64,000 bases of DNA from Octopus vulgaris (Eukaryota): positions 44,392,001-44,456,000 of the forward strand of contig OX597832.1 in assembly GCA_951406725.2 (NCBI GenBank). The letters are read 5' to 3'. Shown one piece after another: positions 8,545 to 55,902 of the stretch (position 1 is its first letter; each line of letters starts with the position of its first letter). The notes beneath the pieces were generated by a model. The model was not told the DNA's origin. It made no database searches and saw only the letters and a program-made list of their open reading frames with translations. A program made the translations under genes and the position numbers.

Positions 8545-8614
8545 ATGGCAGAAGTAATCAGTTGTCTTATTTTCTTGATTGCCTTATCTTGTGTCTCACA
8601 ACAAACAGCCTCAG
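8545..8614 (+). CDS. Signal-peptide leader exon of the serpin gene (MAEVISCLIFLIALSCVSQQTAS + 1 nt)
   Basis: ATG at 8545, hydrophobic core, donor CAG|gtatat at 8614/8615; phase 1 joins the acceptor at 10724 in frame (G+AT ACG ACT ATG = DTTM). Confidence 0.8.
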
Positions 8615-10724: not shown

Positions 10725-11887
10725 ATACGACTATGGACTCAGCAAAGAAACAAGCCATCGGTAACCTTGCTGCTTCAATTGATTATTTTACAAACAGTCT
10801 TTATCAAGCTGTGGCTACAAGAATCAATGAAAATGTCTTCATGTCACCATTAAGTGTTGCTACAGTTTTATCAATGGTTTATTTGGGAGCAAGACAAAAC
10901 TCTGCCAAACAGTTTGAAAATGTTTTGAAGATAACATCAAATCCAGATTCTGTAGCTTTAGCTTTTAAAGAATATTTTTCACTTTTGAAAAACTCAGATA
11001 AACTTGTCACATTCAATTCAGTGAATCGTTTGTATGCCAGTGAAATATTCCCTATTTCTGAAGACTACAAGAACAACATGGTAAAATATTTCTTTTCAGA
11101 TATTGAAAATGTAGACTTCATAATAAATGCTGAGAAGACAAGAAGAACTATTAATGATTGGGTTAAGAATAACACAAATAACAAAATTACTGATCTGTTA
11201 CCAAGTGGAAGTTTGACACCTCAATCAATTCTAGTTCTTATTAATGCTGTATACTTTAAAGGAATGTGGGCTAAAAAATTCCCAGAACATGCAACAAAAT
11301 CTAGAAAGTTTTATTTACGTTCTGACAAGACTGTATTTCATGATTTTATGTATAAATCTGAAGATTTTAATACCAAAACAAGCGACAACTATAAAGTCGT
11401 TGAGTTACCTTATATTGGAAAAGCATTTAGTATGTTTGTAATTCTTCCCAATGACATCAATGGTCTTGCTGCTTTAGAGAAGGAGATTAATGCTCAATTT
11501 CTCAAAGATATTATAAACAGAAAAGGATTTGAAATGATGTATCTAGAATTACATATGCCAAAATTTCGTTTAGAGAGTTGTTTTCAGTTGGGTGAAGTTT
11601 TGAAAAAGCTTGGACTCTCTGATATTTTTGATCCTCTAAAAGCTGATTTATCTGGAATGACTGGTGGTGAGAAGAATATTTATGCCAGTGAAATGTTTCA
11701 TAAAGCATTTGTTAATGTTAATGAAGAAGGAACGGAAGCTGCTGCTGCAAGTGGAATGGTCGCGATGGCAATGTCAGTACAAATTGGGATGGAATTTTAT
11801 GTCAATCACCCATTCACATTTTTGATTGTTGATAACCGAACTAAAATGATCCATTTCATTGGTAAAGTAACAAATCCTACAACATAA
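10725..11887 (+). CDS. Serpin copy 1, main exon; RCL SGMVAMAM-SVQ (predicted P1-P1' Met-Ser)
   Basis: NVFMSP, NAVYFKGMW, EEGTEAAAA hinge and NHPF signature; polypyrimidine tract plus AG at 10723-10724; internal ATG at 10733. Confidence 0.97.
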
Positions 11888-36407: not shown

Positions 36408-37585
36408 GGCAATGTTTCGTTTGTAGTAGCACGCTTGTAGCACGTTTCCGTCGATTTCCGTAAAAAACTTTTATTTTTTTACATATGGCTTTGCGGGAAC
36501 ATTTGAAGTAATGAGAGCGAAAGAGACTAAGAGGAAGTGATTTTATGACGAGGAAATTTCTTTTGAAGCTATGAAAGCATTGATGTACATGTGTGTGTGT
36601 GTGTGTGTTTGATGGGGTGTGGGAGACAGACAGTATGTTGTGTAAGTGAAGTGCTTCTGTTAGTGTGTGCGGAGAGACAATGAGAGTAATGTGTGAAAGA
36701 GAGAGATAACTGAAATTTTTTACTCGATGTATGTGTATATGTATGTCTGCATGTATGTGTGTGTGTGTTTGATGGGGTGTGGGAGACAGACAGTATGTTG
36801 TGTAAGTGAAGTGCTTCTGTTAGTGTGTGTGAAGAGACAGAGAGAGTAATGTGTGAAAGAGAGAGATAACTGAAATTTTTTACTGGATTTATGGCTGCAT
36901 GTATGTGTGTGTGTGTATGTATCTATGTATGTGTGTGTGTATGTATGTGTGTGTGTATGTATGTGCGCATGTATCTATGTATGTGTGTGTGTATGTATGG
37001 CCGATACAGTGTAATTTTTTACTCGGTGTATGTGTATATGTATGTCTGAATGTATGTATGTATGTGTGTATGTATCTATGTATCTGTGTATGTGTATGTA
37101 TGTATGTATGTATGGCCGATTCAGTCTAGGTATGTGTGTGTGTGTGTAAGTATGTGTAAAAAATTACACTGAATCGGCCATACATACATACACACATACT
37201 TACACATACACACATACATACATAGATACATACACACACACATACATATACACATACATCGAGTAAAAAATTTCAGTTATCTCTCTCTTTCACACATTAC
37301 TCTCTCTGTCTCTTCACACACACGAACAGAAGCACTTCACTTACACAACATACTGTGTCTCCCACACCCCATCAAACACACACACACCTGTACATCAATG
37401 CTTTCATAGCTTCAAAAGAAATTTCCTCGTCATAAAATCGCTTCCTCTTAGTCTCTTTCGTTCTCATTACTTCAAATGTTTTTTTACGGAAATCGACAGA
37501 GGAAATCGACAATCGACGGAGGAAATCGACGGAGGAAATCGACGGAAACGTGCTACAAGCGTGCTACTACAAACGAAACATTGCC
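36408..37585. mobile_element. Foldback element/MITE with long inverted arms
   Basis: ggcaatgtttcgtttgtagtagcacgcttgtagcacg ... cgtgctacaagcgtgctactacaaacgaaacattgcc; arms extend over 300 bp; empty sites at ~23718 and ~54625. Confidence 0.85.
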
Positions 37586-39238
37586 CCATTGGCTCCTGAA
37601 AGTTATGAGGGAAAAAATCGGATTGTGTGAATTTTGCGAAAGTCCTCTCCTCCTCTCCGTTTCGTTTGCGCAAATTTTGTTTTCCAGATTCGTTAACTTT
37701 TTTCTTCTTGTTCTGGTGGCCGGGTATTAAACATGTAGTGTGATGGATGAAGAAGACAACAGAAAAAGAAGCAACGGGAGAAAGAAATACAAAAGGCCTT
37801 ACCTCTTCGAAATCAGCGGTCTCTTTCACGAATTCGGCACGTCTTAACGCTTTCCCGTCTATGTTGGAACTGTCCTGCTTGACAAACTCCTGCTGCGCAT
37901 GCATTCTGCAGTCTTCCGCCCACTTCATCTATCACCAGTGCACCACTTAGCTCATCACATCCTATAACACCGACTGCCAACACCACAAAACTAGGTAGTA
38001 ACCGATTCGCTGGCAGAAAAGTTAGCACGCCGGGCGAAATGCTTAGCGGTATTTCGTCTCCTACTACGTTCTGGTTTCAAATTCCGCCAAGGTCGAGTTT
38101 GCCATTCATCCTTTCGGGGTCGATAAATTAAGTACCAGTTACGCACTGGGGTCGATGTAATGGACTGAATACCTATGTCTGTCCTTGTTTGTCCCCTCTG
38201 TGTTTAGCCCCTTGTGGGTAATAAAGAAATAGGTATTTCGTCAGCGATACGTTGTGAGTTCAAATTCCGCCGAGGTCGACTTTGCCATTCATCCTTTCGG
38301 GGTCGATAAATTAAGTACCAGTTATGCACTGGGGTCGATGTAATGGACTGAATACCTATGTCTGTCCTTGTTTGTCCCCCCTGTGTTTAGCCCCTTGTGG
38401 GTAATAAAGAAATAGGTATTTCGTCAGCGATACGTTGTGAGTTCAAATTCGGCCGAGGTCGACTTTGCCTTTCATCCTTTCGGGGTCGATAAATTAAGTA
38501 CCAGTTACGCACTGGGCTTGATGTAATGGACTGAATACCTATGTCTGTCCTTGTTTGTCCCCCCTGTGTTTAGCCCCTTGTGGGCAATAAAGAAATAGGT
38601 ATCCCAGACACTCCTATTTGATTGATACAGAAATTTAACCGTTTTCTTATTTTTTAAGGTAGGATATGATTTTAGGAAGATTTGGCTGGTCTATTGACCA
38701 CGTAGGGGTTTTCTCTTTGACTCATATCTAGATTTTGATGTCAGCCAAGCTTTCTAAAGAATGAAAGTTTTCGAAAATGAACACGTTAATAATAAATAAT
38801 TTCCATTATTTAATTCATACAAAAACATTCGGTTAATGTGAATAACTTGTCTTAATTTATCTAAAAAGACGAAGTAAAAAAAAAAAATCTAATCTGCTAC
38901 ATGGTGAAGTTTTGCCGTGATTTGACTTTCAAATAATGCATGACAAAACTATGGAATGTCGTCGATAATGAAGAGACTTTGCGAGGAAAGTTCGACCGAC
39001 TTGGCAATGAATGTGAAGTAATTAGTATGTCGAGTTAGGTTCCTTGCTGATAGAGAGTTAAAATGGGAGAAACTTTTTTGTTTTAAAATTTCTATAGCGC
39101 AAAATAGAAGTTAACTGCAGCATAAAGTAGAAAAGAAGTTCTGCCGACGACCACGTAGACTGCAGTTGACTCCAGAAAGTGTACGGTAGACTAATTAACG
39201 ATCTCGGCGTATAATGTGTGATGAACCAGAAATAATAA

Positions 39239-40965
39239 TCTCTCTCTATATAAAACTGAGAACGTGTGTCTGTTTGTGTTTCCCTAAAAGTTGAGAACTA
39301 CATAACCAATTTCATTCAAATTTTACACATGCCTTAATCAGGGTCCATGTTTTTTTAATGGGCAAAAAAAATGTTCAACTTCTTGCCTTGGGCGAGCCCA
39401 TAGCAATATCATATCTTCTCCACTATGATTCCCTAAAACTTGAAAAGTACATAACCAATTTCATTCAAATTATACACATGCCTTACTTAGGGTCCATGTA
39501 GTTTCATGGGCAAAAAAATGTTCAACTTCTTGCCTAGAGCGAGCCCATAGCAATATCATATCTTCTCCACTATTTCAGTGTTACGTGTTAAAAGTGAAAC
39601 AAAAACATTTCTCTATTTTATGTCAGATACTTTCACTTTAACAATAAAAGTTAGAGATAATAATAACAATTGAATTATATGCAGTAAGTAATAATTACAA
39701 TCAAACTAAAGTATAATATAATCGTAACATAACAAAAGTAAAAATAGCAGTTGGTATAAAACTGCATCAATGACTTGAACTTGAATAAGTGATTTCACAT
39801 GAATGGGAATAAATCAAAAATAAAATTAGTGTGCAGTATTGGAATAGCCCAGATGGAGCTGTGCACATACCATTTACCACGGCTTTTACATTAGATTATT
39901 TGCTAATTAGCTAGCATTAAGTTTGGCTGCATGTAATGTCTGTTTTCTCGAACAGCCACTACTACTGAGTACTGCTGTTGGTTTATTTTTTATACATAAA
40001 AGACCATAGCTTCAACTGCGTACTGCTTTTTGATTCACCGTAAGGATTGTTGTTATTATTATTATTATTGTTTATTGTTATCACGTTTGTTGGTTCCTAG
40101 TAAGGGAAACGTTGTTGTGTTACATTTGTTAAATAATTGTAAACTGTAACCCTCCTTCTTTGGGAAAAGGGGCTTTGGTTATTGTTTAAAAATTGAATTG
40201 TGTCCCTGTTTGGGGAAATTGACAATATTTTCACTGTTTATACGGAAGCATTTTTGTTAGAATGCCTTCGATAGAAGAAAGTCCAAAAATGAATTTCGCT
40301 GCAGCCGTCGGCGGGCGCGACCTCATTAAAATTAAAATGGAAGAAATACAAACCTATTTCGGATTGATCACAGACAAAGATGGTGAATCTAGGATAACAC
40401 CACCAAACGAAATAAAAAATTAAATTAAAGAAAAGACTATTGTCTATAAAGTATACAATGTAGAGAAAAAAAAGATTTGAACACCTGGAGGAAAGCACCA
40501 TCGTAAAGTGTCTTGGTGCGACTATGAAAGATATCTAACCAGAGGCAGTAAATTCACCACAATAGAAGCAAGGTTCGAGTCAACGGAGCGTGCAAGGGAG
40601 TACTTGACTCGAACCTTGCAAAGTGGAAATATTTTATTTTTACCTTTATATCTGGGACGTAGGACGTCCTGGATGAAAATTAAAAATGTCCCCCCAGAAG
40701 TAGAGGTAGGCTGGATTGTAGCCACACTTCTATACAAGAGGGAGGACACGATACAATTGATCGAAATTGCAAGAGACAAGCCTACAATTCCAGTCTGTTA
40801 TATATTTTGAATGTTGTTATCACTAGCGATATCAAGATATAACTTTGTATTTTGTATTTTATGTGTAGATGTATATATATAGATGTACATGTAATATGTA
40901 CACATATATACACATATATACATGCACTAGCACTATGACCCGGCAATAACGGGTCATAATGCTAG
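39239..40965 (+). mobile_element. Complete non-autonomous Helitron with internal ~130-bp repeats and cargo
   Basis: A|TC start; tatgacccg-gcaataa-cgggtcata hairpin followed by CTAG|T. Confidence 0.75.
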
Positions 40966-42077
40966 TAATAAATAAAGATATTTTTTTCAACTAGCAAGGA
41001 AAATCATTAACTAATACTCGCCCGAACTTCTTTTTAAATATGGAGCAATATATGCATGAAATAAGTAAATAATTAATGAACACATGTAAATAATTAATTA
41101 AGAAAATAATTAAGTAAATAATTAATGAACACAAGTGTGATCGTTGCCAGAGCAGCAAACTGCCTTCCGTTCCGGTGGCACGTAAAAAGCACCCTTTGAG
41201 TGTGATTGTTGCCAGCGTTGCCTTACTGGCACATGAAAAAACATTCAAGCAAGGTCGTTACCAGTGCTGCTGGACTGGCACCTGTGCAGGTGGCACGTAA
41301 AAAACACTATTTGAGCATGGCCGTTGCCAGTACCACCTGACTGGCCCTAGTGCCAGTGGCATGTAAGAGTACCCACTACACTCTCGGAGTGGTTGGCATT
41401 AGGAAGGGCATCCAGCTGTAGAAACTTTGGCAGATCAGATTGGAGCCTCGTGCAGCCATCTGGTTCACCAGACCTCAGTCAAATTGTCCAATCCATGCTA
41501 GCATGGAAAGTGGACGTTAAACGATGATGATGATGATTCTTGTTCCACTTATAGACAGAACACTCCAGAATATATATTAATCATTCTCTTTGTTATTTTG
41601 AGAATGCCAACTTTGCTACATTACTAATTCGGCAATTAAGGCAGTGAGCTAGCAGAATCATTAACGTGCCAGGGGAAATGTTTGGTATTTCGCCTGTCAC
41701 TACATTCTGAGTTCTAATTCCACCGAGGTCGACTTTGCATTTCATTCTGTTGGGGGTCAATAAAATAAATACCGGTGGTACACTGGGGTCAGTGTAATCG
41801 ACTTGATACCGACTCCTCAAGCTGCACTTGTGGCAAAAATTTGAAATAATTATTAATTAGACAGTGCATTAATTAGACATATGCATGGTATTTATATGTA
41901 TATAGTGTGTTGGCTGTTAACTTTTCAAAAGTTTTGTAACATCAAAATTACAGAATCAATGGAATTCTTCAATCAAGATCCAAGACTAAAATCCCTGAGG
42001 TTAATATGAGGGCTCAAGAATTTCAAATGTCTATATTTAAAAGAAAATAAAAGCCAGATGCAATTAACACATACATA

Positions 42078-42479
42078 GGCGCAGGAGTGGCTGTGTGGTA
42101 AGTAGCTTGCTAACCAGCCACATGGTTCTGGGTTCAGTCCCACTGCTGGCATCTTGGGCAAGTGTCTTCTGCTATAGCCCCGGGCCGACCAATACCTTGT
42201 GAGTGGATTTGGTAGATGGAAACTGAAAGAAGCCTGTCGTATATATGTATATATATGTATATGTATGTATGTGTGTGTGTGTGTGTTTGTGTGTCTGTGT
42301 GTTTGTCCCCCTAGCATGGTGTGTTTACGTCCCCGTCACTTAGCGGTCCGGCAAAAGAGACCGATAGAATAAGTACTGGGCTTACAAAGAATAAGTCCTG
42401 GGGTCGATTTGCTCGACTAAAGGCGGTGCTCCAGCATAGCCGCAGTCAAATGACTGAAACAAGTAAAAGAGTAAAAGAG
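42078..42479 (+). mobile_element. SINE family 1 in the 3' flank of the mini-cassette
   Basis: Full copy with small deletions. Confidence 0.9.
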
Positions 42480-42701
42480 AGAAAAAAGAGAATAATGATT
42501 AAATATTTACTGAGATGCTTTATTAATATAAACAGAAATAAAACTTACAAGCATTGATTTCACTTTATTCAATAAGTAAATAACGTTTACAGGCAACAAT
42601 AAGTATATTGTTAAAATAATAAAAGATACGTTCAAGAGTGTAATATCTTTCCGTAAATGTACAACACATACAAATTGATAATGTTGATTAAAATTAAAAC
42701 T

Positions 42702-43029
42702 TATTTACGTTATTTACAATTGACAAGAATTTGTCCTCATCTTGTTTGTTGTTAACACATTTCAGCTGATATTCTATCTAGCATTCATCAGGTGTCTTGG
42801 GGAAATTTCGAACCTGGGTTCTCATTCCTAAGGTATTTTTCGATGTTGCTGTTGTTGTTATCATCATCATCATCATCATCATCATTATTCAGGCCACTGC
42901 CTGGAATTGAACGTGGGCATATGGCGTAGTCGTTAAGAGCACAGGCTACTAACTCCAAGATTCCGAGTTCGATTCCAGGCAGTGACCTAAATAATGATAA
43001 TAATAATAGTAATAATAATAATAATAATC

Positions 43030-43074
<45 letters not shown>

Positions 43075-43619
43075 CAGTACCAGGCAGTGGCTCTCATGGC
43101 TTCTCATCTTAACTGATTGGAAGTGTTATCATGTACATTGTTTTGTCTTGGTATGAAAGATTGGCTTACAAAAATATTCTGCTCAATACCACAGATTTGC
43201 TTGTCAGTTGTTTGACCTCAACCAGTTGATCATGTCCCTTAGTGGCTGACGATATGTGCATCTCTGATTACGAGCAGAAGTAGTGGGGGAGCATCATAGC
43301 CATGTGTTGAGAGGGACTCTTCAGGGTTTGAATAATTCACCTCTGGAAACATGGGTGTTTTGTTCAACATCCTTAAACAACCCTTATTCAGGGACCTTTT
43401 GAGCTGGATGGGCTACTCGACCAGAAGAAAATTCTAAGTGGGCCCCACCTGCAAGGTCATGTGCTGTTGATCTTGATATGAGATCACCATGTCGCACACA
43501 TATGGTTGTGATGCATGTGCCTAGTGTACCCTTATCAGACGGGTAGTCATGATGGGTATACTGGGCTTCGTATATTCTACACTAGTATCACTTTGATGGC
43601 ATGCACTACTCTCTCACTC

Positions 43620-43672
<53 letters not shown>

Positions 43673-43860
43673 CAAAATCGCAAAATACCTTAGGAATGAG
43701 AGCCCAGGTTCGAAATTTCCCCAAGACACCTGATGAAGGCTGGAGGGTATATCAGCCGAATCATTGTGTTAATAACAAACAAGATGAGGACAAATATCCA
43801 TCAATTGTAAATAATGTATTTAATTCCTCATCTCTTAAATATAGAACTAAATTAAAACTA
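42702..43860. mobile_element. Penelope-like composite insertion with inverted ends
   Basis: 42702-42848 is the reverse complement of 43673-43820; aaattaaaact direct repeat on both sides; degenerate hammerhead core ctgatga-aggctg..cagcc-gaa at ~43730. Confidence 0.55.
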
Positions 43861-44031
43861 TTCTTATAATCTTTCATTGCATAGATATGTCCATGGTTCT
43901 GCACAATTACAACTATAATGGTTTAAGTCATTCTACTCAAAAATATTGTAAATGGATTTGCTGAGTTACGTTGTCTACATAATACAATCTAGTATCCCAT
44001 AAGAGAAAAATCTTTGACAAGACAATATCAT

Positions 44032-44207
44032 CTATATCGTGGGGTTTGTTACTTTACCAATGAAATGGATCATTTTAGTTCGGTCATCAACAACTAAAAA
44101 CGTGAATGGGTGATTGACATCAAATTGCATCCCAATTCTCGACATATAATTTGAGACCACCATTCCACTTGCAGCAGCAGCTTCCGTTCCTTCGTATATA
44201 GTCGTAT
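44032..44207 (-). other. Serpin mini-cassette: splice acceptor fused in frame to hinge, RCL and C-terminus (58 aa); RCL SGMVVSNY-MSR
   Basis: ctccag|AT ACG ACT ATA TAC GAA GGA ACG...; about 1 kb of scaffold is missing; open frame to a TAG stop. Confidence 0.85.
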
Positions 44208-44299
44208 CTGGAGAATATAGAATATGAAGAGAAAATATACAAAATAAATTTGTATAAACATTTGAGGCTACTGACCAGATCTCTAGATGGTGCAAAGTC

Positions 44300-44570
44300 C
44301 CCTTTCATCCCAAGGTAACATGGTGGTGGAACAATGTAGTTGACAGGGTCATTAGGGAAAAGAAACAGGCATGGAAAGACTGGAAGAACGGTGGTAGCAG
44401 GGAATTGTATCAGATCGCCAGAAGGGAAAATAGGAGACAGGTTTACTTAGTCAGAGGGGAAGCAGATAAGAAAAAAATTTGTCAATGTTCTGTGTCGTGA
44501 GGACCAAAGACTTAAAGTGTTTTGTGTTGCAAGACAGTGTGTGAGAGAGAATCATGATGTTATAGGAGAG
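44300..44570 (+). mobile_element. LINE (RTE-like) ORF fragment
   Basis: TWWWNNVVDRVIREKKQAWKDWKNGGSRELYQIARRE resembles the endonuclease-RT linker. Confidence 0.65.
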
Positions 44571-44655
44571 ATATACACACACACAAATACATGCATGCAT
44601 GTACACGTACACACACACACATACACACTCATGCATGCATATTTTTATTATGAGT

Positions 44656-45460
44656 TACTCTCTCTTTTACTCTTTTACTTGTTTCAGTCATTTGACTGCG
44701 GCCATGCTGGAGCACCGCCTTTAGTCGAGCAAATCGACCCCGGGAATTATTCTTTGTATGCCCAGTACTTATTCTATCAGTCTCTTTTTGCCGAACCGCT
44801 AAGTGACGGGGACGTAAACACACCAGCATCGGTTGTCAAGCAATGCTAGGTGGACAAACACAGACACACAAACATATACACACACATACATATATACGAC
44901 AGGCTTCTTTCAGTTTCCGTCTACCAAATCCACCCACAAGGCATTGGTCGGCCCGGGGCTATAGCAGAAGACACTTGCCCAACCCGGAACCATGTGCTTG
45001 GTTAGCAAGCTACTTACCACACAGCCACTCTGCGCCTATATAAATATTTCTGTATAAATATTTCAAAATGTTGAGTTAGTATGAAGGACGTTGAGTAATT
45101 CTGCTTCAAAAAAATTAGATGAAAAACAAAACAAGAATAAAATAACTTGTTGGATTTATGAATGTTAAAAATCTCCAAACAATTATCAGATAATAGATGA
45201 ACTGAGAACAATGGAATATTAGGCGTAGGAGTGGCTGTGTGGTAAGTAGCTTGTTAACCAACCACATGGTTCCGGGTTCATCCCACTGTGTGGCATCTTG
45301 GGCAAATGTCTTCTGCTATAGCCCCGGGCTGACCAATGCTGTGTGAGTGGATTTGGTAGACGGAAACTGAAAGAAGCCTGTCGTATATATATATGTATGT
45401 GTGTGTTTGTGTGTCTGTGTTTGCCCCCCTAGCATTGCTTGACAACCGATGCTGGTGTGT
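44656..45460. mobile_element. Head-to-head inverted pair of SINE family 1
   Basis: 44656-45037 (-) and 45222-45460 (+, truncated). Confidence 0.85.
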
Positions 45461-45997
45461 AAAAGTTTTGTAATGCCACAATTATTGAAACAATGTAATT
45501 ATTTTATCAAGATCCAAGACATAATTACGAAGGGTGAACACGGGGGCTTAAAATTTCGAATGTCTAAATTTAAAACAAAGAATATAAAAGCCAGATGCAA
45601 TCAACACATACAAAATAATGGAATATTTACTGAGATACTTTATTAATATGAAGCATACAAATATTGATTTCACTTCATTCAACCAGAAAATAACGTTTAC
45701 AGGCAACAGTAGATATATTGTTAAAATAGTAAACTTGCAAAGAAAGGATACTTTAAAAAGTGTCAAAATTTTCTGTCAATGTATGGCATATACAAATTCA
45801 TAATATTGATTTAGATTAATGTGGTATTATAATATATCATTGAATAGATATGACCTTGGTTCTACACAGTTACAATTATAATGTCCTAAGTCATTTTACT
45901 AAAAAAACCATTCTAAATAAATTTGTTCAGTTACATTCTCCACATAATACAATGTAGTATTCCCTAAGAGGGAAATCTTTGACAGGGCAATATCATC

Positions 45998-47168
45998 TCA
46001 TGTTGTAGGATCTGTTACTTTACCAATGAAATGGATCATTTTAGTTCGGTCATCAACAACTAAAAACGTGAATGGGTGATTGACATCAAATTGCATCCCA
46101 ATTCTCGACATATAATTTGAGACCACCATTCCACTTGCAGCAGCAGCTTCCGTTCCTTCTTCATTAACATCAACAAATGCTTTATGAAACATTTCACTGG
46201 CATAAATATTCTTCTCACCACCAGTCATCCCAGATAAATCAGCTTTTAGAGGATCAAAAATATCAGGGAGTCCAAGCTTTTTCAAAACATCACCCAACTT
46301 AAAACTACTCTCTAATGAAATTTTGGCATATTTAATTCTAGAAGCATCATTTTAAATCCTTTTCTGTCAACAATGTCTTTGAGAAATTGAGCATTAATCT
46401 CCTTCTCTAAAGCAGCAAGACCATTGATTTCATTGGGAAGAATTACAAACATACTAAATGCTTTTCCTATATAAAGTAACTCAACAACTTTATAGTTGTT
46501 GCGTATTTTTGTATTAAAATCTTCAGATATATACATAAAATCATGAGATACAGTCTTGTCAGAGCTTAAATAAAACTTTCTAGATGATGTTGCTTGTTCT
46601 GGGAATTTTTCAGCTCACATTCCTTTGAAGTATACAGCATTAATAAGAACTAGAACCGACTGAGGTGTCAAACTTCCACTTGGTAACAGATCGGTAATTT
46701 TGTTATTTGTGTTATTCTTAACCCAATCATTAATAGTAATTCTTGTCTTCTCAGCATTTGTTATGAAGTCTACATTTTCAATATCTGAAAAGAAATATTT
46801 TACCATGTTGTTCTTGTAGTCTTCTGAAATAGGGAATTTTTCACTGGCATACAAACGATTCACTGAATTGAATGTGACAAGTTTATCTGAGTTTTTCAAA
46901 AGTGAAAAATATTCTTTAAAAGCCAAAGCTACAGAATCTGGATTTGATGTTATCTTCAAAACATTTTCAAACTGTTTGGCAGAGTTTTGTCTTGCTCCCA
47001 AATAAACCATTGATAAAACAGTAGCAACACTGAATGGTGACATGAAGACATTTTCATTGGTTCCTGTAGCCACAGCTTGATAAAGACTGTTTGTAAAATA
47101 ATCAATTGAAGCAGCAAGGTTACCGATGTCTTGTTTCTCTGCTGAGTCCATATCGTATACGATAGTGT
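45998..47168 (-). pseudogene. Serpin pseudogene; RCL SGMVVSNY-MSR
   Basis: Full-length homology; TGG>TGA at 46615-46617 and a 1-bp deletion near 46315. Confidence 0.9.
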
Positions 47169-47680
47169 CTAGAGAATATAGAATATGAAAAGAAAATATA
47201 CAAAATAAATTCTGGCAAACATTTCAGTATATTGTAGAAGACATCTATGAAAGCAATGTCTGAAATCTCTTCTGTTCAAACTTTAAATTTAACTTTTACA
47301 TGAACATATTTTGTACGGTAACACTTAATATGATTTAAATAGATTTTAAAATAATTAAAAATTTATAAGATTTAATAATATAACCATTTCTTTCTTCCAT
47401 TCTTTATGTGGCATTTGGCACATACCTTAAAATGATGTTGAAATGTTTTAGCTTAAATACGGTGATTATTTACAAAATAGATTTGAACATTATGTATCAC
47501 ATTTAGAATACAGTTAGGAAACAATAAAATTTGGGTTTTTGCATAAATCATTTCAGACGATTTTCATACAGAATTCTTAGATCACATTAGTGTGTTTTAC
47601 ACTCTCTTGAAATATTGAACAGGAACTGTTTTTCAGGAAATTCTTTTGCATTTCATCTCTTCATATTGTATATTCTTTAG

Positions 47681-48729
47681 ATGCCACGGAAATAATATGG
47701 ACTAAGCAAAGAAACAAGACTTCGGTAACCTCGCTGCTTCAGTTGATTATTGTACAAAGAGTCTTTTTCAAGCTGTGTCTACAGGAACCGTTGAAAATGT
47801 TTTCATGTCACCATTCAATGTTGCTACCGTTTTATCAATGGTTTATTCTGGAGCAAGACAAAACTCTGCCAAACAATTGAAAATATTTTGAAAATAACTT
47901 TAAATACAGATCCTGTAATTTGAGGTTTTAAAGAATATTTTTCACTTTTGAAACACTCAGATGAACTTATTGCATTGAATTCAGTCAATTGTTTTAGTGC
48001 CAATGAAAAATTTCGTATTTCAGAAGACTAAAAGAACATTATTGCAAAAAATTTCTTTTCAGATATTGAAAATGTAGACTTCATGACAAATATTGGAAAA
48101 GGAAGAATTAATATTAATTACAATGTTGTAAGACAACAAGATGCTAGAATTGTTAGTATGCTGGGCAAAATACTTAGTAGCAATTTGTCCATCTTGACAT
48201 TCTGGAGTTGACATTGTCATCCTTTAGGGTTTGACAAAATAAGTACCAATTGAGCACTTGTGTTGCTGTAATTGATTTACCCCTACAATTAAATTGCTGG
48301 CCTTGCACCAAAATTTGAAAGCAGTTTTAATGATTGTGCTGAAAATAACACAAATAACATAATTACCGATCTCTTAACAATTTGAAGTTGACACCTCAGT
48401 CGGTTCTAGTTCTTATTAATGCTGTGTACTTGAAAAGAATATGGCATAAAATATTCCTATAAAAAGCAACATCATCTAGAAAGACAATTTTAGCACAAAA
48501 ATAAGCAACAGCTCTACAGTTGTTGAGTTACCTTATATAGGAAAAGCATTTAGTATGTTTGTAATTCTTCCCAATGAAATCAATGGCCTTAATGCTTTAG
48601 TGAAGGAGATTAATGCTCAATTTCTCAAAGATATTGTAGACAGAAAAGGGATTTGAAATGATGCTTCTAGAATTAAATATGCCAAAATTTCGTTTAGAGA
48701 GTAGTTTTAAGTTGGGTGATGTTTTGAAA
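47681..48729 (+). pseudogene. Old serpin pseudogene, truncated before the RCL
   Basis: Acceptor tctttag at 47680; ATG GAC TAA at 47697; many stops; degenerate SINE at ~48120-48325; ends at LGDVLK. Confidence 0.9.
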
Positions 48730-49422
48730 CCCTACAATCTGCTCAATCCAACTATAGGAAAACTGATCTTTCTTACTGTTTCCACCAATGGCACACCCTC
48801 TGAAATATTTTCAAATCACTCACTACTGAAATGCAAACCGAGGCAAATTCATATGTAACCTGACACCACGATGCCTGATTACTCATCACAGGCAAGTGTT
48901 GTCCTTGAAATACCACATCCTGCTAAATGCTGGCCAAGTGACACAACCATCTTGCCTGCTTCACCACATGCCATCATCATCATCATCCATCATTTTGAAT
49001 CCGGGTTTTGTCCTCATTAACGACGGTGGCCGGATCTACTTCAATGCCATAGCAATTGCCCTCACACCATCTCACACATTTTTCGGCAATCCTCCCTTCC
49101 CAAGCCAACCATCCCAATCACCTCCTCCACTTGTTCCCTCCACCTGTTCCACAGTCTATTTCGCTTTTGCCGTCCATTTCCCTCAGACTCTAGCACCCTC
49201 TTCACAACTTGCCCCTCATCCCTCGTGTAGCATCTGTTACAAGAAGCAGTTGTTGCTGAAATATCATACACTTAAGAATGTCATTCACTTGGCACCAACA
49301 TTATGTTTGTTTCCCATAAATGAATTGATGTCGCTATGAGAGCAATAACAACCAGATGACTCAAACTGATCATTGGAGATTTAAATACATCAGCCCTTAA
49401 GCCACTCCAGATTTATTTTAAA

Positions 49423-49818
49423 CTAGCAGTATCGCCCGGCGTTGCTCGGGTTTGTAAGGGAAATAACTATATAAGCATTTTTAGAGATGTAAAGTATAAT
49501 AGCCATCTCAATATGGCTAACCACAAAGGGAGGGTGTTACTGTAGCTTTTTATGTTCTGAAATTTAATAATACATTTTTAGAGAGTTATTTCCCTTATAT
49601 ATGCCAAAAATGCATTAAAAATGGGGAAAATTGATGGTAAATTATTTTTAAAATCGTAGACTCATCGTAGATGCGCGCTATTACCCAGAAGGGCTCGATA
49701 TGAATCACGACTATAAGATACCCGGTTTTGGTTAAACTGTACTGCAAAATGTGGGAGTAGTTAGGAATCTAAATCGTAGGAGACAGACAGCACACAACCT
49801 CACTTTTATATATAAAGA
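49423..49818 (-). mobile_element. Non-autonomous Helitron
   Basis: Same CTAG/hairpin end as 7359; 5' TC at 49818. Confidence 0.75.
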
Positions 49819-51374
49819 TTCTCTTAACTCTCTCCTTAAATATCGGATGATGTGAAAATGTTTGCAATTTCTAATGTTTTAAATGATGTGCCATTGTTAA
49901 AGTTTTATTAAACTGAATATATTGGGTGATACTTTCTCTTGTTCACTCATTCTTATATATGTATACACACAAACGGGTGTATATATATAACGTATACATG
50001 TTTACTCTCCCAGACTCTAGGCTTATGTGTCTCATTTGCTCTTTTCCTCTACTGGGCATTCCATCCTGCCGCAGTTTTCATCAGATCAACTGATACCACG
50101 GATTTGAGTCTGCTTCATAAGGTTTTAACTTATGCAGTATCCATTATCCATTTCCATATTACTTTATGTAGAAAGAAAAGGCTTTCTTCTTTTCTCTACA
50201 ACAATATTTGTGCCATTTAAATTTCCCTCTCAGCAAAAAGTATTTTTGTGTTGAAAATATATTCTCAAATCATATTTTCTAATAATTTATTTAAGTTGTT
50301 AAGATGTATATTATGTCACTTTATCTATGAGGTCTGATCAAAAATTATCCGGCCTTGTGCTATAAAAAAAAAAACTACAACACATATTAATTCAGCATTT
50401 AATCCTCTTTGAAGTAGTCCCATTCTGAAGCTACACAAATGACCCAACATTGTTTCCATTCATGGATGCTTTATGTACCATACACAGTATAAATACATCA
50501 CAAAATTTCAATTTACTGCAGTATATATCTCCAGATAATATCCTTTAAGAACATGCTGCATATAAAAATACGATATATATCGAAGGCAGATGAAAATTGT
50601 TCTAGTTGCAAGTATGCTAGTTTCTAGCTGCAGCTGGTGAGTGTGTTAGATGTATTTCTGCCTCATCTAAGCAGCTGGTTGCCTATGAGTATATGCTATT
50701 GATAACATCCAACAGGACCTGAATGCATCTAGTATCCTCACCAACCAACCAACCAACCACTGCTAGGACAATCTTCATATGCCTGATATAAATAGCATTT
50801 TCAAACACAGCATATCTATGTGAGGTTTTATCTCTGTATGAATACTGTATTGAATCAATGTAATTTTTTAATGAAGATCTAAGACTAAAATACCAGAGAC
50901 TATCAAGAGGGCTGAAGAAGTTGAAATGTCTACATTTGTAACAAAGCTATTAAAAGCCAGTTGCAATTAACACATACATTAAAATGGAATATTTACTGAG
51001 ATGCTTTATTAATATAAACAGAAATAAAAACATACAAGCATTGATTTCATTTTATTTAACCAGTAAATAATGTTTACAGGCAACAATAAGTATATTGTTA
51101 AAATAATAAACTTGCAAAGAAAGGATACTTTAAAAAGTGTCATATTTTTCTGTCAATATATGGCAAGTACAAATTCATAATATTGATTTGGATTAATGTG
51201 GTATTATAATATATCATTGAATAGATATGACCTTGGGTCTGCCAGATTACAATTATAATGTCCTAAGTCATTTTACTAAAAAAACGATTCTAAATATATT
51301 TGCTCAGTTACATTCTCCACATAATACAATGTAGTATTCCATAAGAGAGAAATCTTTGACAGGGCAATATCATC

Positions 51375-52555
51375 TTATGTTGAAGGATTTGTTACTTTAC
51401 CAATGAAATGGATCATTTTAGTTCGGTTGTCAACAATTAAAAATGTGAATGGATGATTGACGTCAAAATCCATACAATTTATAACAAATCGTCCTAACAC
51501 TTTCCTCCTTTCCATTGCACTTGCAGCAGCAGCTTCCGTTCCTTCTTCATTAACATTAACAAATGCTTTATGAAACATTTCACTGGCATAAGTATTCTTC
51601 TTACCATCACTCATTCCAGATAAATCTGCTTTTCGAGAATCAAAAATATCAGAGAGTCCAAGCTTTTTCAAAACATCACGCAACTTAAAACTACTCTCTA
51701 AACGAAATTTTGGCATATGTAAATCTAGACCCATCATTTGAAATCCTTTTCTGTCTACAATGTCTTTGAGAAATTCAGCATTAATCTCCTTCTCTAAAGC
51801 AGCAAGACCATTGATTTCATTGGGAAGAATTACAAACATACTAAATGCTTTTCCTCTATAAAATAACTCAACAACTTTATAGTTGTTGCTTATTTTTGTA
51901 TTAAAATCTTCAGATATATACATAAAATCATGAGATACAGTCTTCTCAGAGCTTAAATAAAACTTTCTAGATGATGTTGCTTGTTCTAGGAATTTTTCAG
52001 CCCACATTCCTTTGAAGTATACAGCATTAATAAGAACTAGAACCGTCAGAGTGGTCAAACTTCCACTTGGTAACAGATCGGTAATTTTGTTATTTGTGTT
52101 ATTCTTAACCCAATCATTAATAGTAATTCTTGTCTTCTCAGTATTTGTTATAAAGTCTACATTTTCAATATCTGAAAAGAAATATTTTACCATGTTGTTC
52201 TTGTAGTCTTCTGAAATAGGGAATATTTCACTGGCATACAAACGATTCACTAAATTGGATGTGACAAGTTTATCTGTGTTTTTCAAAAGTGAAAAATATT
52301 CTTTAAAAGCTAAAGCTACAGAATCTGGATTTGATGTTATCTTCAAAACATTTTCAAACTGTTTGGCAGAGTTTTGTCTTGCTCCCAAATAAACCATTGA
52401 TAAAACAGTAGCAACACTGAATGGTGACATGAAGACATTTTCATTGGTTCCTGTAGCCACAGCTTGATAAAGACTGTTTGTAAAATAATCAATTGAAGCA
52501 GCAAGGTTACCGATGTCTTGTTTCTCTGCTGAGTCCATATTGTATTTGGTAGTGT
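51375..52555 (-). CDS. Serpin copy 4; basic RCL SAMERRKV-LGRF
   Basis: Intact ORF (MDSAEK at 52538); phase-1 acceptor giving DTTKYNM; the ORF-track extension to 52586 is polypyrimidine tract. Confidence 0.95.
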
Positions 52556-53049
52556 CTAGAGAATATAGAATATGAAGAGAAAACATACGAAATAAATTCT
52601 TGCAAACATTTCAAAATAATTTATTAGACATTACTGTAATTATAGACATCTATGAAAGCAAAGTCTGAAATCTCTTCTGATCAAACTCTAATATTAACTT
52701 TTACATGAACGTATTTCTTAACATAACACAGAGTTGATGTGTTTTAAACACTTTTTAAAATAATTAAAAATTTATATATACCATTTTTTCTCCATTATTT
52801 ATCTGATATTTGGCACATATCTTAAAAGTTTCATTTATAAGATGATGTTGGAACTTATCCATGTTTACATTTCTGAGACAAATTTGAATGGAGCAGGTTT
52901 AGTTTTCATTTTTTGCATATATGGTAAGATAAGGTATCAAGTACAATGATATACTCCACCTGCTGAGAGCCTGGCCAAATACTTGCAACAAAATGACATC
53001 TTCACAAAAGGCCTCCAAGTGCCTTGAGGTGATGTTGAACTAATTAGTG

Positions 53050-53610
53050 TGTAAAGGGAACTGGTTGCTTCTTTACACTTTTGGGGTGCAACTTGGGTTC
53101 AACACAATTTCCTTTCCTTTTTGTTTCTAGAAAATACCAGTCGGTAACAAAACGCAACTTTAAAAATATATACGATTCTTTATTCTCTTATTCACAAATG
53201 AAGCACGATGGCATACTGGTATCCACCTAGTTCAACACAGCAAAGCTGAATTCTAACGTTTGTAAGATTCTTACAACAATTCAGCATTAATAGAACAGGT
53301 CAAATCCTAAGCGTCTGGGACAGGAGAATAGGCTGATCACACGTTTAAAAATACGTCCTTTCTCTTCTATCACTGTGTCTCAAGTCAACGACGCTATTAA
53401 GGAACGCGATAGAATTTCTTCCCCAGTCTCTAGCGCATGTGCATGAGGAAACTTCCTTATGCCTTTCCAGAAGGTTCCAGGAGGTTCCAACCCCGCACAC
53501 GCATACTGAAGAAGGATGTACCGCACACGCACACTGAAGAAGGATGTACCGCACACACACACTGAAGAATGACGTTGCGTGTGCGCACATTGGAATATGA
53601 CGTCAGTACA
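53050..53610. mobile_element. Solo LTR with 4-bp TSD AGTG (Gypsy-like)
   Basis: agtg|TGTA...TACA|agtg; empty sites at ~21170 and ~33833. Confidence 0.8.
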
Positions 53611-55902
53611 AGTGTAATACCAAGCTAGACCGGATCGGGTAAACCTAGACTCAATGGTTAATATTTAGTTTGTAGAATGACCGTGTGAAGGAGAGGTGAC
53701 GAGAATGTCTCCTTTAGTACGCCGCACGGTCGATTACAATAAATAGGAAAAAGGATGAATGAGTATGAATGCCAGCAGGAAAAGAGAGACACAACCAGTC
53801 GAATGTTGAAGAGAAAGATTTTATTGATAGGTTAACATGTGTGTCTGTGTGTGTGTCGTGTATATATAATAATAGACAGGCCGTCATGTATACATAATGT
53901 GTGTGCAGAAACGTGGATGTATGCGTGTGCGATGAGTACAGAGCATTGAAAGAGTCTATAATAGGACGTTAGAAGAATGCAATGCAGAGCCAGTTGAGGC
54001 ACGTGTCATGCGTGAAGCTGTGGCTACTATGCAGAGCCGGTTACTTGGTACAGAAGGTTCTCGCAGGTTGTATCTGCTGTTAACCATGGTGAAATAATTC
54101 ATGAACAGTGTTGAGTAGAGGCCATTGATTGGTTAAAATCTGAAATATTAAACTACGTTAAACTTACAAATTACAATTTTCTCAAGAGAGCCAGAAATTG
54201 TGTTGAAAACTGCCGTTCAAAAGGAATAGATCCTCCTTTTCTAATTGAAACCATTTTTCTGCAAAGCCTTCCACATGACCATATCACGCCATCCGACAAA
54301 TTTTGATGCTCTTATCCCACCAATGGAGCACGCGTGTGGCCCACTGGTATCATCATTAAAGGGGATGAGGAGTAAAAAAAAAAATCATAAATTTTCCAAA
54401 CCATTTTTTCATAACAAGATGTTTCCCATCATTTCGAAGTTTGTGGTGAAAAACAATCGGGAAAACCCTGTCCAAAAGGGAGAAATTCCAACTTATGTGG
54501 TCTTCTTGATCGGAAACTCCTCTCCCTGCTCCCTAAAAATTTTTTCCAAAAAAATTTCTTTATAATCTTAATCCATGCCGTTTGAAATGTATTTATATAA
54601 AATTTCACTAAAAGATATCCATTTTCCTGAAAGTTATGAGGGAAAAAATCGGATTGTGTGAAGTTTGCGAAAGTCCTCTCCTCATCCCCGTTTCGTTTGC
54701 GCAAATTTTGTTTTCCAGATTCGTTAACTTTTTTCTTCTTGTTCTGGTGGCCGGGTATTAAACTTGTAGTGTGATGGATGAAGAAGACAACAGAAAAAGA
54801 AGCAACGGGAGAAAGAATAACTAAAGGCCTTACCTTTTCGAAATCAGCGGTCTCTTTCACGAATTCTACACGTCTTATCGCTTTCCCGTCTATGTTGGAA
54901 CTGTCCTGCTTGACAAACTCCTGCTGCGCATGCATTCTGCAGTCTTCCGCCCACTTCATCTATCACCAGTGCACCACTTAGCTCATCACATCCTATAACA
55001 CCGACTGCCAACACCACAAAACTAGGTAGTAACCGATTCGCTGGCAGAAAAGTTAGCACGACGGGCGAAATGCTTAGCGGTATTTCCTCAGCGATACGTT
55101 GTTAGTTCAAATTCCGCCAAGGTCGACTTTGCCTTTCATCCTTTCGGGGTCGATAAATTAAGTACCAGTTACGCACTGGGGTCGATGTAATGGACTGAAT
55201 ACCTATGTCTGTCCTTGTTTGTCCCCTCTGTGTTTAGCCCCTTGTGGGTAATAAAGAAATAGGTATCCCAGACACTCCTATTAGATTGATACAGAAATTT
55301 AACCGTTTTCTTATTTTTTAAGGTAGGATATAATTTTAGGAAGATTTGGCTGGTCTATTGACCACGTAGGGTTTTTCTCTTTGACTCATATCTAGATTTT
55401 GATGTCAGCCAAGTTTTTTAAAGAATGAAAGTTTTCGAAAATGAACACGTTAATAATAAATAATTTCCATTATTTTATTTCATACAAAAACATTCGGTTA
55501 ATGTGAATAACTTGTCTTATTTTATCTAAAAAGACGAAGTGAAAAAAAAAAAATTTAATCTGCTACATGGTGAAGTTTTGCCGTGATTTGACTTTCAAAT
55601 AATGCATGACAAAACTATGGAATGTCGTCGATAATGAAGAGACTTTGCGAAGAAAGTTCGAGCGACGTGGCAATGAATGTGAAGTAATTAGTATGTCGAG
55701 TTAGGTTCCTTGCTGATAGAGTTAAAATGGGAGAAACATTTTTGTTTTAAAATTTCTATAGTGCAAAATAGAAGTTAACTGCCGCATAAAGTAGAAAAGA
55801 AGTTCTGCCGACGACCACGTAGACTGCAGTTGACTCCAGAAAGTGTACGGTAGACTAATTAACGATCTCGGCGTATAATGTGTGATGAACCAGAAATAAT
55901 AA

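Follow-up and report, generated by a model that had tools for sequence, protein, structure and literature searches.

The serpin array and its leader

The window analysed here is a stretch of 64,000 nucleotides of Octopus vulgaris (C19:44392001-44456000, window coordinates 1-64,000), and the element under study, hereafter the mini, occupies positions 44032-44207 on its minus strand. To describe the array in which the mini lies, the window was surveyed together with the 120 kb around it, 184 kb of sequence. The serpin bodies in the window are single open exons of ~385 codons, each standing behind the same acceptor, and the nearest public proteins to the array bodies are octopus models named 'leukocyte elastase inhibitor'. 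Searching for the acceptor with the 21-mer TTCATATTCTATATTCTCCAG and at most 3 mismatches, we found 16 copies on the minus strand of the 184 kb, one at every minus-strand unit (16/16). Fourteen of these acceptors open into DTxxY[ND]MDSA[EK]KQ..., and the other two, those of the mini and its duplicate, open into the serpin hinge.

Just two leader exons occur in the 184 kb, one on each strand. The plus-strand leader belongs to the sole intact plus-strand unit, whose body (10725-11884) follows 2.1 kb downstream of it, and the public O. vulgaris protein P0004 (410 aa) corresponds to this unit together with its leader, so that the unit illustrates the use of leader and acceptor. The minus-strand leader exon lies outside the window at C19:44529278-44529209, encodes MARIIPGFPFLVVLFCMSQQTVS and ends in a phase-1 donor, CAG|GTAAAT. 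A phase-1 leader had been assumed in an earlier sequence-only reading of the window, and such a leader does exist: the single minus-strand exon serves 16 acceptors, and public octopus proteins join it to different bodies. In the sister species, three NCBI isoforms (isoforms X1, X2 and X3; 413 aa) carry the identical leader followed by three different bodies with different RCLs, and the octopus serpin forms of 384-387 aa begin at the internal Met. Along the contig, the interval C19:44411490-44529278 (window 19490 to beyond the right end) holds one leader and then 16 acceptors over ~118 kb, each with a whole serpin body and its own stop. The minus-strand locus looks less like a set of separate genes than like an array of terminal exons, each for a whole protein and each an alternative to the others.

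In the 184 kb, the minus strand carries 16 units: nine intact, five frame-broken (5 of the 14 full-length units) and the two minis. Since six inverted, diverged partial serpin copies are added to these on the plus strand (window 47681; C19:44482518, 44502880, 44505893, 44508907 and 44514367), decay is common in the array. Each inverted partial copy has an acceptor-like site of its own (DARENNMDSAKKQ..., DATEIIW...), and four of the six are spaced ~3-5.5 kb apart inside a subarray of units with a 3-kb period. As a separate observation, the frame-broken unit C19:44501201-44502422 on the minus strand has an out-of-frame N-terminal reading, TLSYTIWTQQRNKTLV..., which recurs in the sister-species model P0123 (411 aa), so that its frameshift is either common to both species or a genuine alternative N-terminus.

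The features close to the mini are collected in Table 1. On the 3' side of the mini lie long microsatellites of the AAT/ATT type (window 42930-43125 and 43597-43750). The fragment of a dispersed repeat on its other side was recognized in a search of the genome (2.8 Gb in 227 contigs, with the best 40 of 1004 candidates scored); many copies of it, 90-94% identical, stand among those best 40 of 1004 candidates, and it contains an open frame of 80 codons, ..WWWNNVVDRVIREKKQAWKDW.., while a Pfam search of the open frames in the repeat matched no family.

Table 1. Position of the mini exon, its parts and its neighbours in the window
Feature	Position	Strand	Basis
Signal-peptide leader exon (MAEVISCLIFLIALSCVSQQTAS, 23 residues) of the single plus-strand unit	8545..8614	+	Match to public protein P0004
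ATTAAA hexamer, 211 nt past the stop, placed as in the intact parent	43819..43824	-	Putative poly(A) signal
Stop TAG, same place as in full-length units	44032..44034	-	Comparison with full-length units
Coding part of the mini exon, phase 1: D (1 leader base) TTIY, hinge, RCL and s1C/s4B/s5B-equivalent C-terminus, 58 codons	44035..44207	-	Translation; Pfam Serpin
RCL SGMVVSNYMSR, predicted P1 Tyr at 44146-44148	44137..44169	-	Canonical spacing
Hinge codons EGTEAAAA, P16-P9 by count	44170..44193	-	Antithrombin alignment, hinge Glu as starting point
Deletion junction TAC|GA|A, the 2 bases GA fitting either side	44192..44194	-	Alignment to parent; break at 44194|44193
Intron 3' end, pyrimidine-rich tract and acceptor AG (44209-44208)	44208..44250	-	The array's usual acceptor
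Dispersed-repeat fragment, ~50 nt upstream of the acceptor, also upstream of the parent	44258..44500	+	Genome search
Full-length unit with its frame broken into 3 ORF pieces, upstream neighbour of the mini, same RCL as the mini	45998..47223	-	ORF reading, allele comparison
Inverted, truncated serpin copy beyond the broken neighbour	47609..48729	+	Translation, acceptor survey

Anatomy of the mini exon

The mini begins with the standard acceptor of the array, ttctccag|AT, which is followed by the five codons DTTIY and then directly by the serpin hinge EGTEAAAAS.... The 3' end of its intron reads ...ttcatattctatattctccag, and the exon, when one base from an upstream exon is added, translates as D TTIY EGTEAAAASGMVVSNYMSRIGMQFDVNHPFTFLVVDDRTKMIHFIGKVTNPTI. 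It had been claimed from the letters of the window that the usual acceptor is joined straight to the hinge (DTTIY-EGTEAAAAS) and that the frame stays open to a normal stop; this is confirmed, with 58 open codons and the stop at the usual place. The mini has a stop of its own and a putative 3' end signal.

Residues 6-56 of the mini match positions 320-370 of the 370 positions in the Pfam Serpin model (PF00079) with 46.8 bits at a cut-off of 27, and therefore the peptide consists of hinge, RCL and the last serpin strands only. Within this span the hinge motif E-G-T/S-E-A-A-A, the RCL and the C-terminal signature F.VNHPF / GKV.NP are all present, and the Glu at P17 is swapped for Tyr at the deletion junction. 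On the antithrombin alignment, a count of 17 residues starting at the hinge Glu predicts Tyr as P1; antithrombin and PAI-1 entries are among the PDB matches listed in the structural comparison. The complete serpin fold of ~370 residues, with sheets A-C and helices, is absent from the mini and is covered by its intact parent, described below, over Pfam positions 4-370. A search of cluster representatives, which is a weak one, found no proteins of 31-102 aa sharing words with the 58-aa peptide.

Like the other terminal exons of the array, the mini lies downstream of the single leader on the same strand and has the conserved phase-1 acceptor. Because the phase-1 leader is real and the acceptor of the mini is in phase 1 too, splicing of the one to the other would yield a pre-peptide of 23+58 residues (81 residues).

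Intact parent and the deletion

In the genome search, the two halves of the mini match separately at C19:44496459-44497753, ~1 kb apart and with 98-99% identity (best 40 of 1004 candidates). An intact paralogue lies there, at C19:44496462-44497727 and 60 kb from the mini, which we call the parent. It carries the upstream sequence of the mini, DTTIY, the same RCL and the unusual C-terminus KVTNPTI*, plus the internal MDSAEKQ.... Aligned over 2006 columns, mini and parent differ by 21 substitutions in 1010 common bases (2.1%) and by exactly one gap, which measures exactly 996 nt, that is 332 codons, and has a 2-nt microhomology. The flanks common to both extend over more than 6 kb at 97-98.5% identity; 5.2 kb downstream are 97.0% and 465 nt upstream 98.5% identical.

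The 5' break of the parent reads ...ATA TAC GAT ATG GAC... and the 3' break ...AAT GAA GAA GGA ACG..., so that at the breakpoints TACGA|TATGG and AAGA|AGGAAC the bases GA are the sole common ones. The gap spans the codons from the one preceding the internal Met through the first hinge Glu; the whole body and the internal ATG are gone, and residues 1-332 of the 384-residue protein, numbered from the internal Met, are absent from the mini. Acceptor, hinge, RCL, C-terminus, stop and ATTAAA hexamer are retained. We considered whether the 996 nt could have been removed in the manner of an intron and rejected it: the three equivalent placements of the gap end in TA..GA, AT..AG and GA..AA. Since no placement has GT..AG ends, the gap is a genomic deletion with a 2-nt microhomology, not a removed intron. 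An intact paralogue, together with a lesion that abolishes the function of the product, is one mark of a pseudogene, and the mini has both.

Regarding the 173 coding bases, only 2 substitutions separate mini and parent (44200 and 44140), both in third positions and both synonymous (0/2 non-synonymous). Under neutrality, two synonymous changes out of two have a probability of roughly 0.06 by a rough estimate, which argues weakly for constraint at best, as recent conversion or exchange would look alike. With so few substitutions in the coding part, the open frame of the mini is uninformative on selection. It is not beyond chance either: the frame was inherited from the parent, has received 2 substitutions since the split, and would survive a deletion with odds of 1 in 3.

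Duplication of the mini

The mini, its broken neighbour and the next unit are duplicated as a block of 17.56 kb (window 36755-54304 vs C19:44471599-44489140), the copies of which are 99.52% identical with 60 mismatches and 12 gap openings. This block is nested in an older duplication of ~43 kb with 92-98% identity. The second mini, at C19:44478868-44479166, is identical to the first over the 1010 nt compared. An unexpectedly low difference between the two minis was considered as a signal and rejected, for the 60 mismatches of the block appear clustered elsewhere, outside the minis, because units of the c51k type differ at several residues.

Contigs across the junction

For reads we used the Logan assembled contigs of public runs, which are not raw reads and drop rare forms; none of the runs that hold the mini sequence is on record as RNA. 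The most informative piece comes from run X4, which belongs to another study with another organism label and is marked 'RNA?'. Its contig of 340 nt (depth 16.3) lies on 44055-44250 free of gaps, with 139 and 57 letters flanking the junction. Run X4 behaves like RNA because its sister run X9, from the same sample, is RNA-like, with adjacent pieces at depths from ~4 to ~7500. The X4 contig is unspliced, as it runs through the acceptor into intron-like sequence. Beyond 44250 it resembles the intron of another unit; this stretch was discounted as a possible graph chimera, and the part at 44212-44250 is common to paralogues. In addition, run X20 (also 'RNA?') has a contig of 621 nt at depth 414 with a full-length form of this RCL type.

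These contigs bear on whether the acceptor was falsely joined to the hinge in the assembly, a concern raised in the sequence-only reading that the X4 contig, crossing the junction in other material, lays to rest. What might suggest such a false join is that the contigs of the DNA-like run X1 (first organism label, the same as that of the best-matching run) leave 44195-44202 uncovered, and that the two copies of the 17.6-kb block hardly differ. However, the X1 gap is a hole and not evidence, since only 76% of this run was read and other unique parts are uncovered too. Moreover, an overlap of 2 shared bases cannot mislead a k-mer graph into the X4 join, so the junction is real and not peculiar to the assembly; it also occurs twice in the assembly, in blocks which differ elsewhere. 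The mini is extremely unlikely to be an artefact. The pieces shown from run X2 (organism label B) include no bridging one, which is uninformative.

As to transcript use of the mini exon, the Logan contigs offer a single bridging contig, itself unspliced, and none that is spliced. The earlier reading had suggested a search for junction reads ending at 44207, and, as far as contigs can stand in for reads, this has drawn a blank: among the contigs shown from six runs, none has a loose end at 44207, where the leader would be spliced, and none at 44058, the place of an internal donor.

Could the mini nevertheless be a working cassette? Joined to the leader, it would encode a secreted product of ~58 residues that might act as a protease decoy, or might insert into full-length serpins, in sheet A or at the C-terminal strand positions, and alter their activity. 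The fit of leader and phase, the intact acceptor, frame, stop and ATTAAA, the synonymous nature of both coding substitutions, the existence of two copies and the occurrence of the junction in a run with another organism label are all consistent with it, and a transcript with its stop in the last exon would escape nonsense-mediated decay. However, at 2.1% from its parent the mini is too young for conservation to mean anything; broken copies lie around it; no leader-spliced contig was seen, and the sole bridging contig is unspliced. The peptide would, furthermore, be made up mostly of strands that are buried in the serpin fold and would likely misfold alone, and nothing specific speaks for a bait or a modulator. 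We hold a functional cassette to be very unlikely.

Public models and the internal GGTAAAG

The only public model that holds the 58-residue mini sequence is P0127 (1736 aa), in which six units are chained and the duplicate mini serves as an internal exon, so that ...MIHFI-DTTIYEGTEAAAAS...MIHFI-DTIVYNMDSAEK... is the reading there. P0126 (571 aa) likewise chains two bodies via the GGTAAAG near the stop. At window 44051-44061 and at the same place in every unit stands ATTG|GTAAAG, which resembles a phase-1 donor, and its GGTAAAG is invariant in 7 aligned units.

These models would make the mini one in-frame internal exon of chained transcripts, in which the donor-like ..CAT TTC ATT G|GTAAAG (phase 1) of every body is spliced to the acceptor of the next unit. 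Two models built this way and an invariant motif are in its favour. However, the invariance probably reflects nothing but the coding conservation of the serpin Gly-Lys-Val, which explains it without any splicing; at 44058 the contigs shown do not end and continue into ..NPTT* and the 3'UTR; and GKVTNPTx is where the NCBI sister-species models stop. Since GGTAAAG encodes this conserved tripeptide and the chained models also cross frame-broken units, as is typical of ab initio prediction, we take them for prediction artefacts, and an internal exon is extremely unlikely.

Exchange of an RCL patch

Comparison of the 10 intact units in the 184 kb shows a hypervariable RCL, with a pN of 0.39 and a pN/pS of 1.4; the ratio is 0.54 for the body and 0.18 for the C-terminus, and the hinge shows zero non-synonymous changes. 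To follow the RCL of the mini in its frame-broken neighbour, we restricted the comparison to alignment columns 700-1450 and, within them, to sites where at least 8 of 12 other units disagree with the parent. In its body, up to column 1091, the neighbour agrees with the array majority at 14 of 15 sites; from the RCL to the last strands (columns 1205-1297, s4B) the parent allele is present at all 13 of 13; and from column 1338 onward, in the C-terminal end and the 3' flank, the majority allele returns at 21 of 21. By this switch of alleles, window 45998-46200 on the minus strand is seen to carry a gene-conversion patch of 93-247 nt that covers the RCL. The mini equals the neighbour over ~147 nt, including site 44140 at which the parent differs, and the 5' homology limit of the mini falls inside the 5' boundary interval of the patch. 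From the allele pattern and the ~147-nt identity it follows that an RCL-sized exchange between the mini/parent lineage and the neighbour happened; as the neighbour is frame-broken, this event was without protein outcome.

The same evidence is what there is for regarding the mini as a reservoir, that is, a relic kept as a conversion template which moves RCL patches between units, as pseudogene donors do in other diversifying families. Patch, identity, shared limit and hypervariable RCL fit this, so the proposal of an RCL donor made in the sequence-only reading gains circumstantial support from the adjacent unit. However, the recipient is broken and there is one event, which amounts to no selected function, and the data fit either direction and either donor, the mini or an ancestor of the parent type. 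A reservoir role has an extremely low probability. Also very unlikely is a combination in which leader and mini make a secreted, gene-encoded RCL peptide acting as a decoy or a strand-insertion tuner of the array serpins, with the relic seeding RCL patches into neighbours as well.

Origin and fate of the mini

The mini is probably a young relic of a whole-serpin terminal exon, produced by an in-frame deletion, now decaying and most likely non-functional. Of the three options left by the sequence-only reading (bait or modulator peptide, RCL donor, chance in-frame deletion), the last fits best: there is an intact paralogue with the same flanks, a 2-nt microhomology, 2.1% divergence and an array with 5 of its 14 full-length minus-strand units broken. 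A copy of an intact serpin terminal exon lost 996 bases, we suppose through microhomology-mediated end joining or replication slippage, and the reading frame would have survived by chance, 1 in 3. The mini was then recopied within the 17.6-kb block. An mRNA joining leader to mini, if any, would encode the 81-residue pre-peptide without a selected role; splicing of the mini to the shared leader would probably persist as a by-product and yield a short product of no use.

The mini sits among decaying copies, beside a frameshifted unit and an inverted fragment, which speaks for a relic. Against it stand the lack of non-synonymous changes (0/2), the intact acceptor, frame, stop and ATTAAA, the two copies, and the junction in an RNA-like run labelled with another organism. 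These points do not separate a young neutral relic from a selected element.

Taken alone, the mini is an unremarkable by-product of a tandem array that evolves fast. Its value is that of a marker, in that it dates a deletion and shows that units of the array decay and get re-duplicated, and together with its neighbour it provides a clean case of gene conversion over a patch the size of an RCL. A peptide really made from it would be the first serpin RCL peptide encoded by a gene that we know of; our literature search found no paper on the octopus serpin array or on gene-encoded RCL peptides. More interesting than the mini is the surrounding locus, in which a single signal-peptide leader serves 16 terminal-exon units of the whole-serpin type with hypervariable RCLs.

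Comparison with known systems

Truncated and internally deleted pseudogene copies occur in other tandem serpin clusters. The mini resembles them in its origin from an intact paralogue, its one disabling lesion, its broken neighbours and its youth. Unlike them, it can still be offered to the splicing machinery with an open frame, since its acceptor is preserved and the units have a single leader in common.

It is known that synthetic RCL peptides take the position of strand 4A in serpin sheet A. The product of the mini would correspond to the segment which is freed by RCL cleavage in serpins, P1' to the C-terminus, with P16-P1 added. Cleavage peptides and synthetic peptides, however, come from proteolysis or synthesis and not from a gene.

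Pseudogene-templated gene conversion is well known from the pseudo-V donors of chicken immunoglobulin. Here, too, a non-functional fragment adjoins members of its family and has an exact hypervariable patch in common with a neighbour. In contrast to the immunoglobulin case, there is a single patch in a broken recipient, with no sign of a programmed or selected process.

A further parallel is found in insects, where exon 9 of Manduca serpin-1 is an alternative exon for the serpin C-terminus. In PpSerpin-1, 21 C-terminal forms arise from alternative exons, and there are secreted and intracellular N-terminal forms (PMC10513286). As described there, the insect C-terminal exons are, like the mini, short exons for the RCL and the C-terminal strands only, at a locus which diversifies the RCL, and the secreted and intracellular forms parallel the octopus forms of 413 aa and 384 aa (PMC10513286). 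Unlike the insect exons, the mini has an acceptor in phase with a signal-peptide leader, includes the hinge and would have no body attached; in the octopus array a terminal exon encodes a whole serpin, and the mini was born by deletion. It does consist of RCL and C-terminus only, as an insect-type cassette would, but the octopus bodies are single exons without a hinge intron, and the phase-matched donors for the mini are only that of the leader and the GGTAAAG near the stop. The mini is thus a pseudo-exon of the octopus leader-plus-serpin array, without the serpin fold, and not a member of the insect cassette system.
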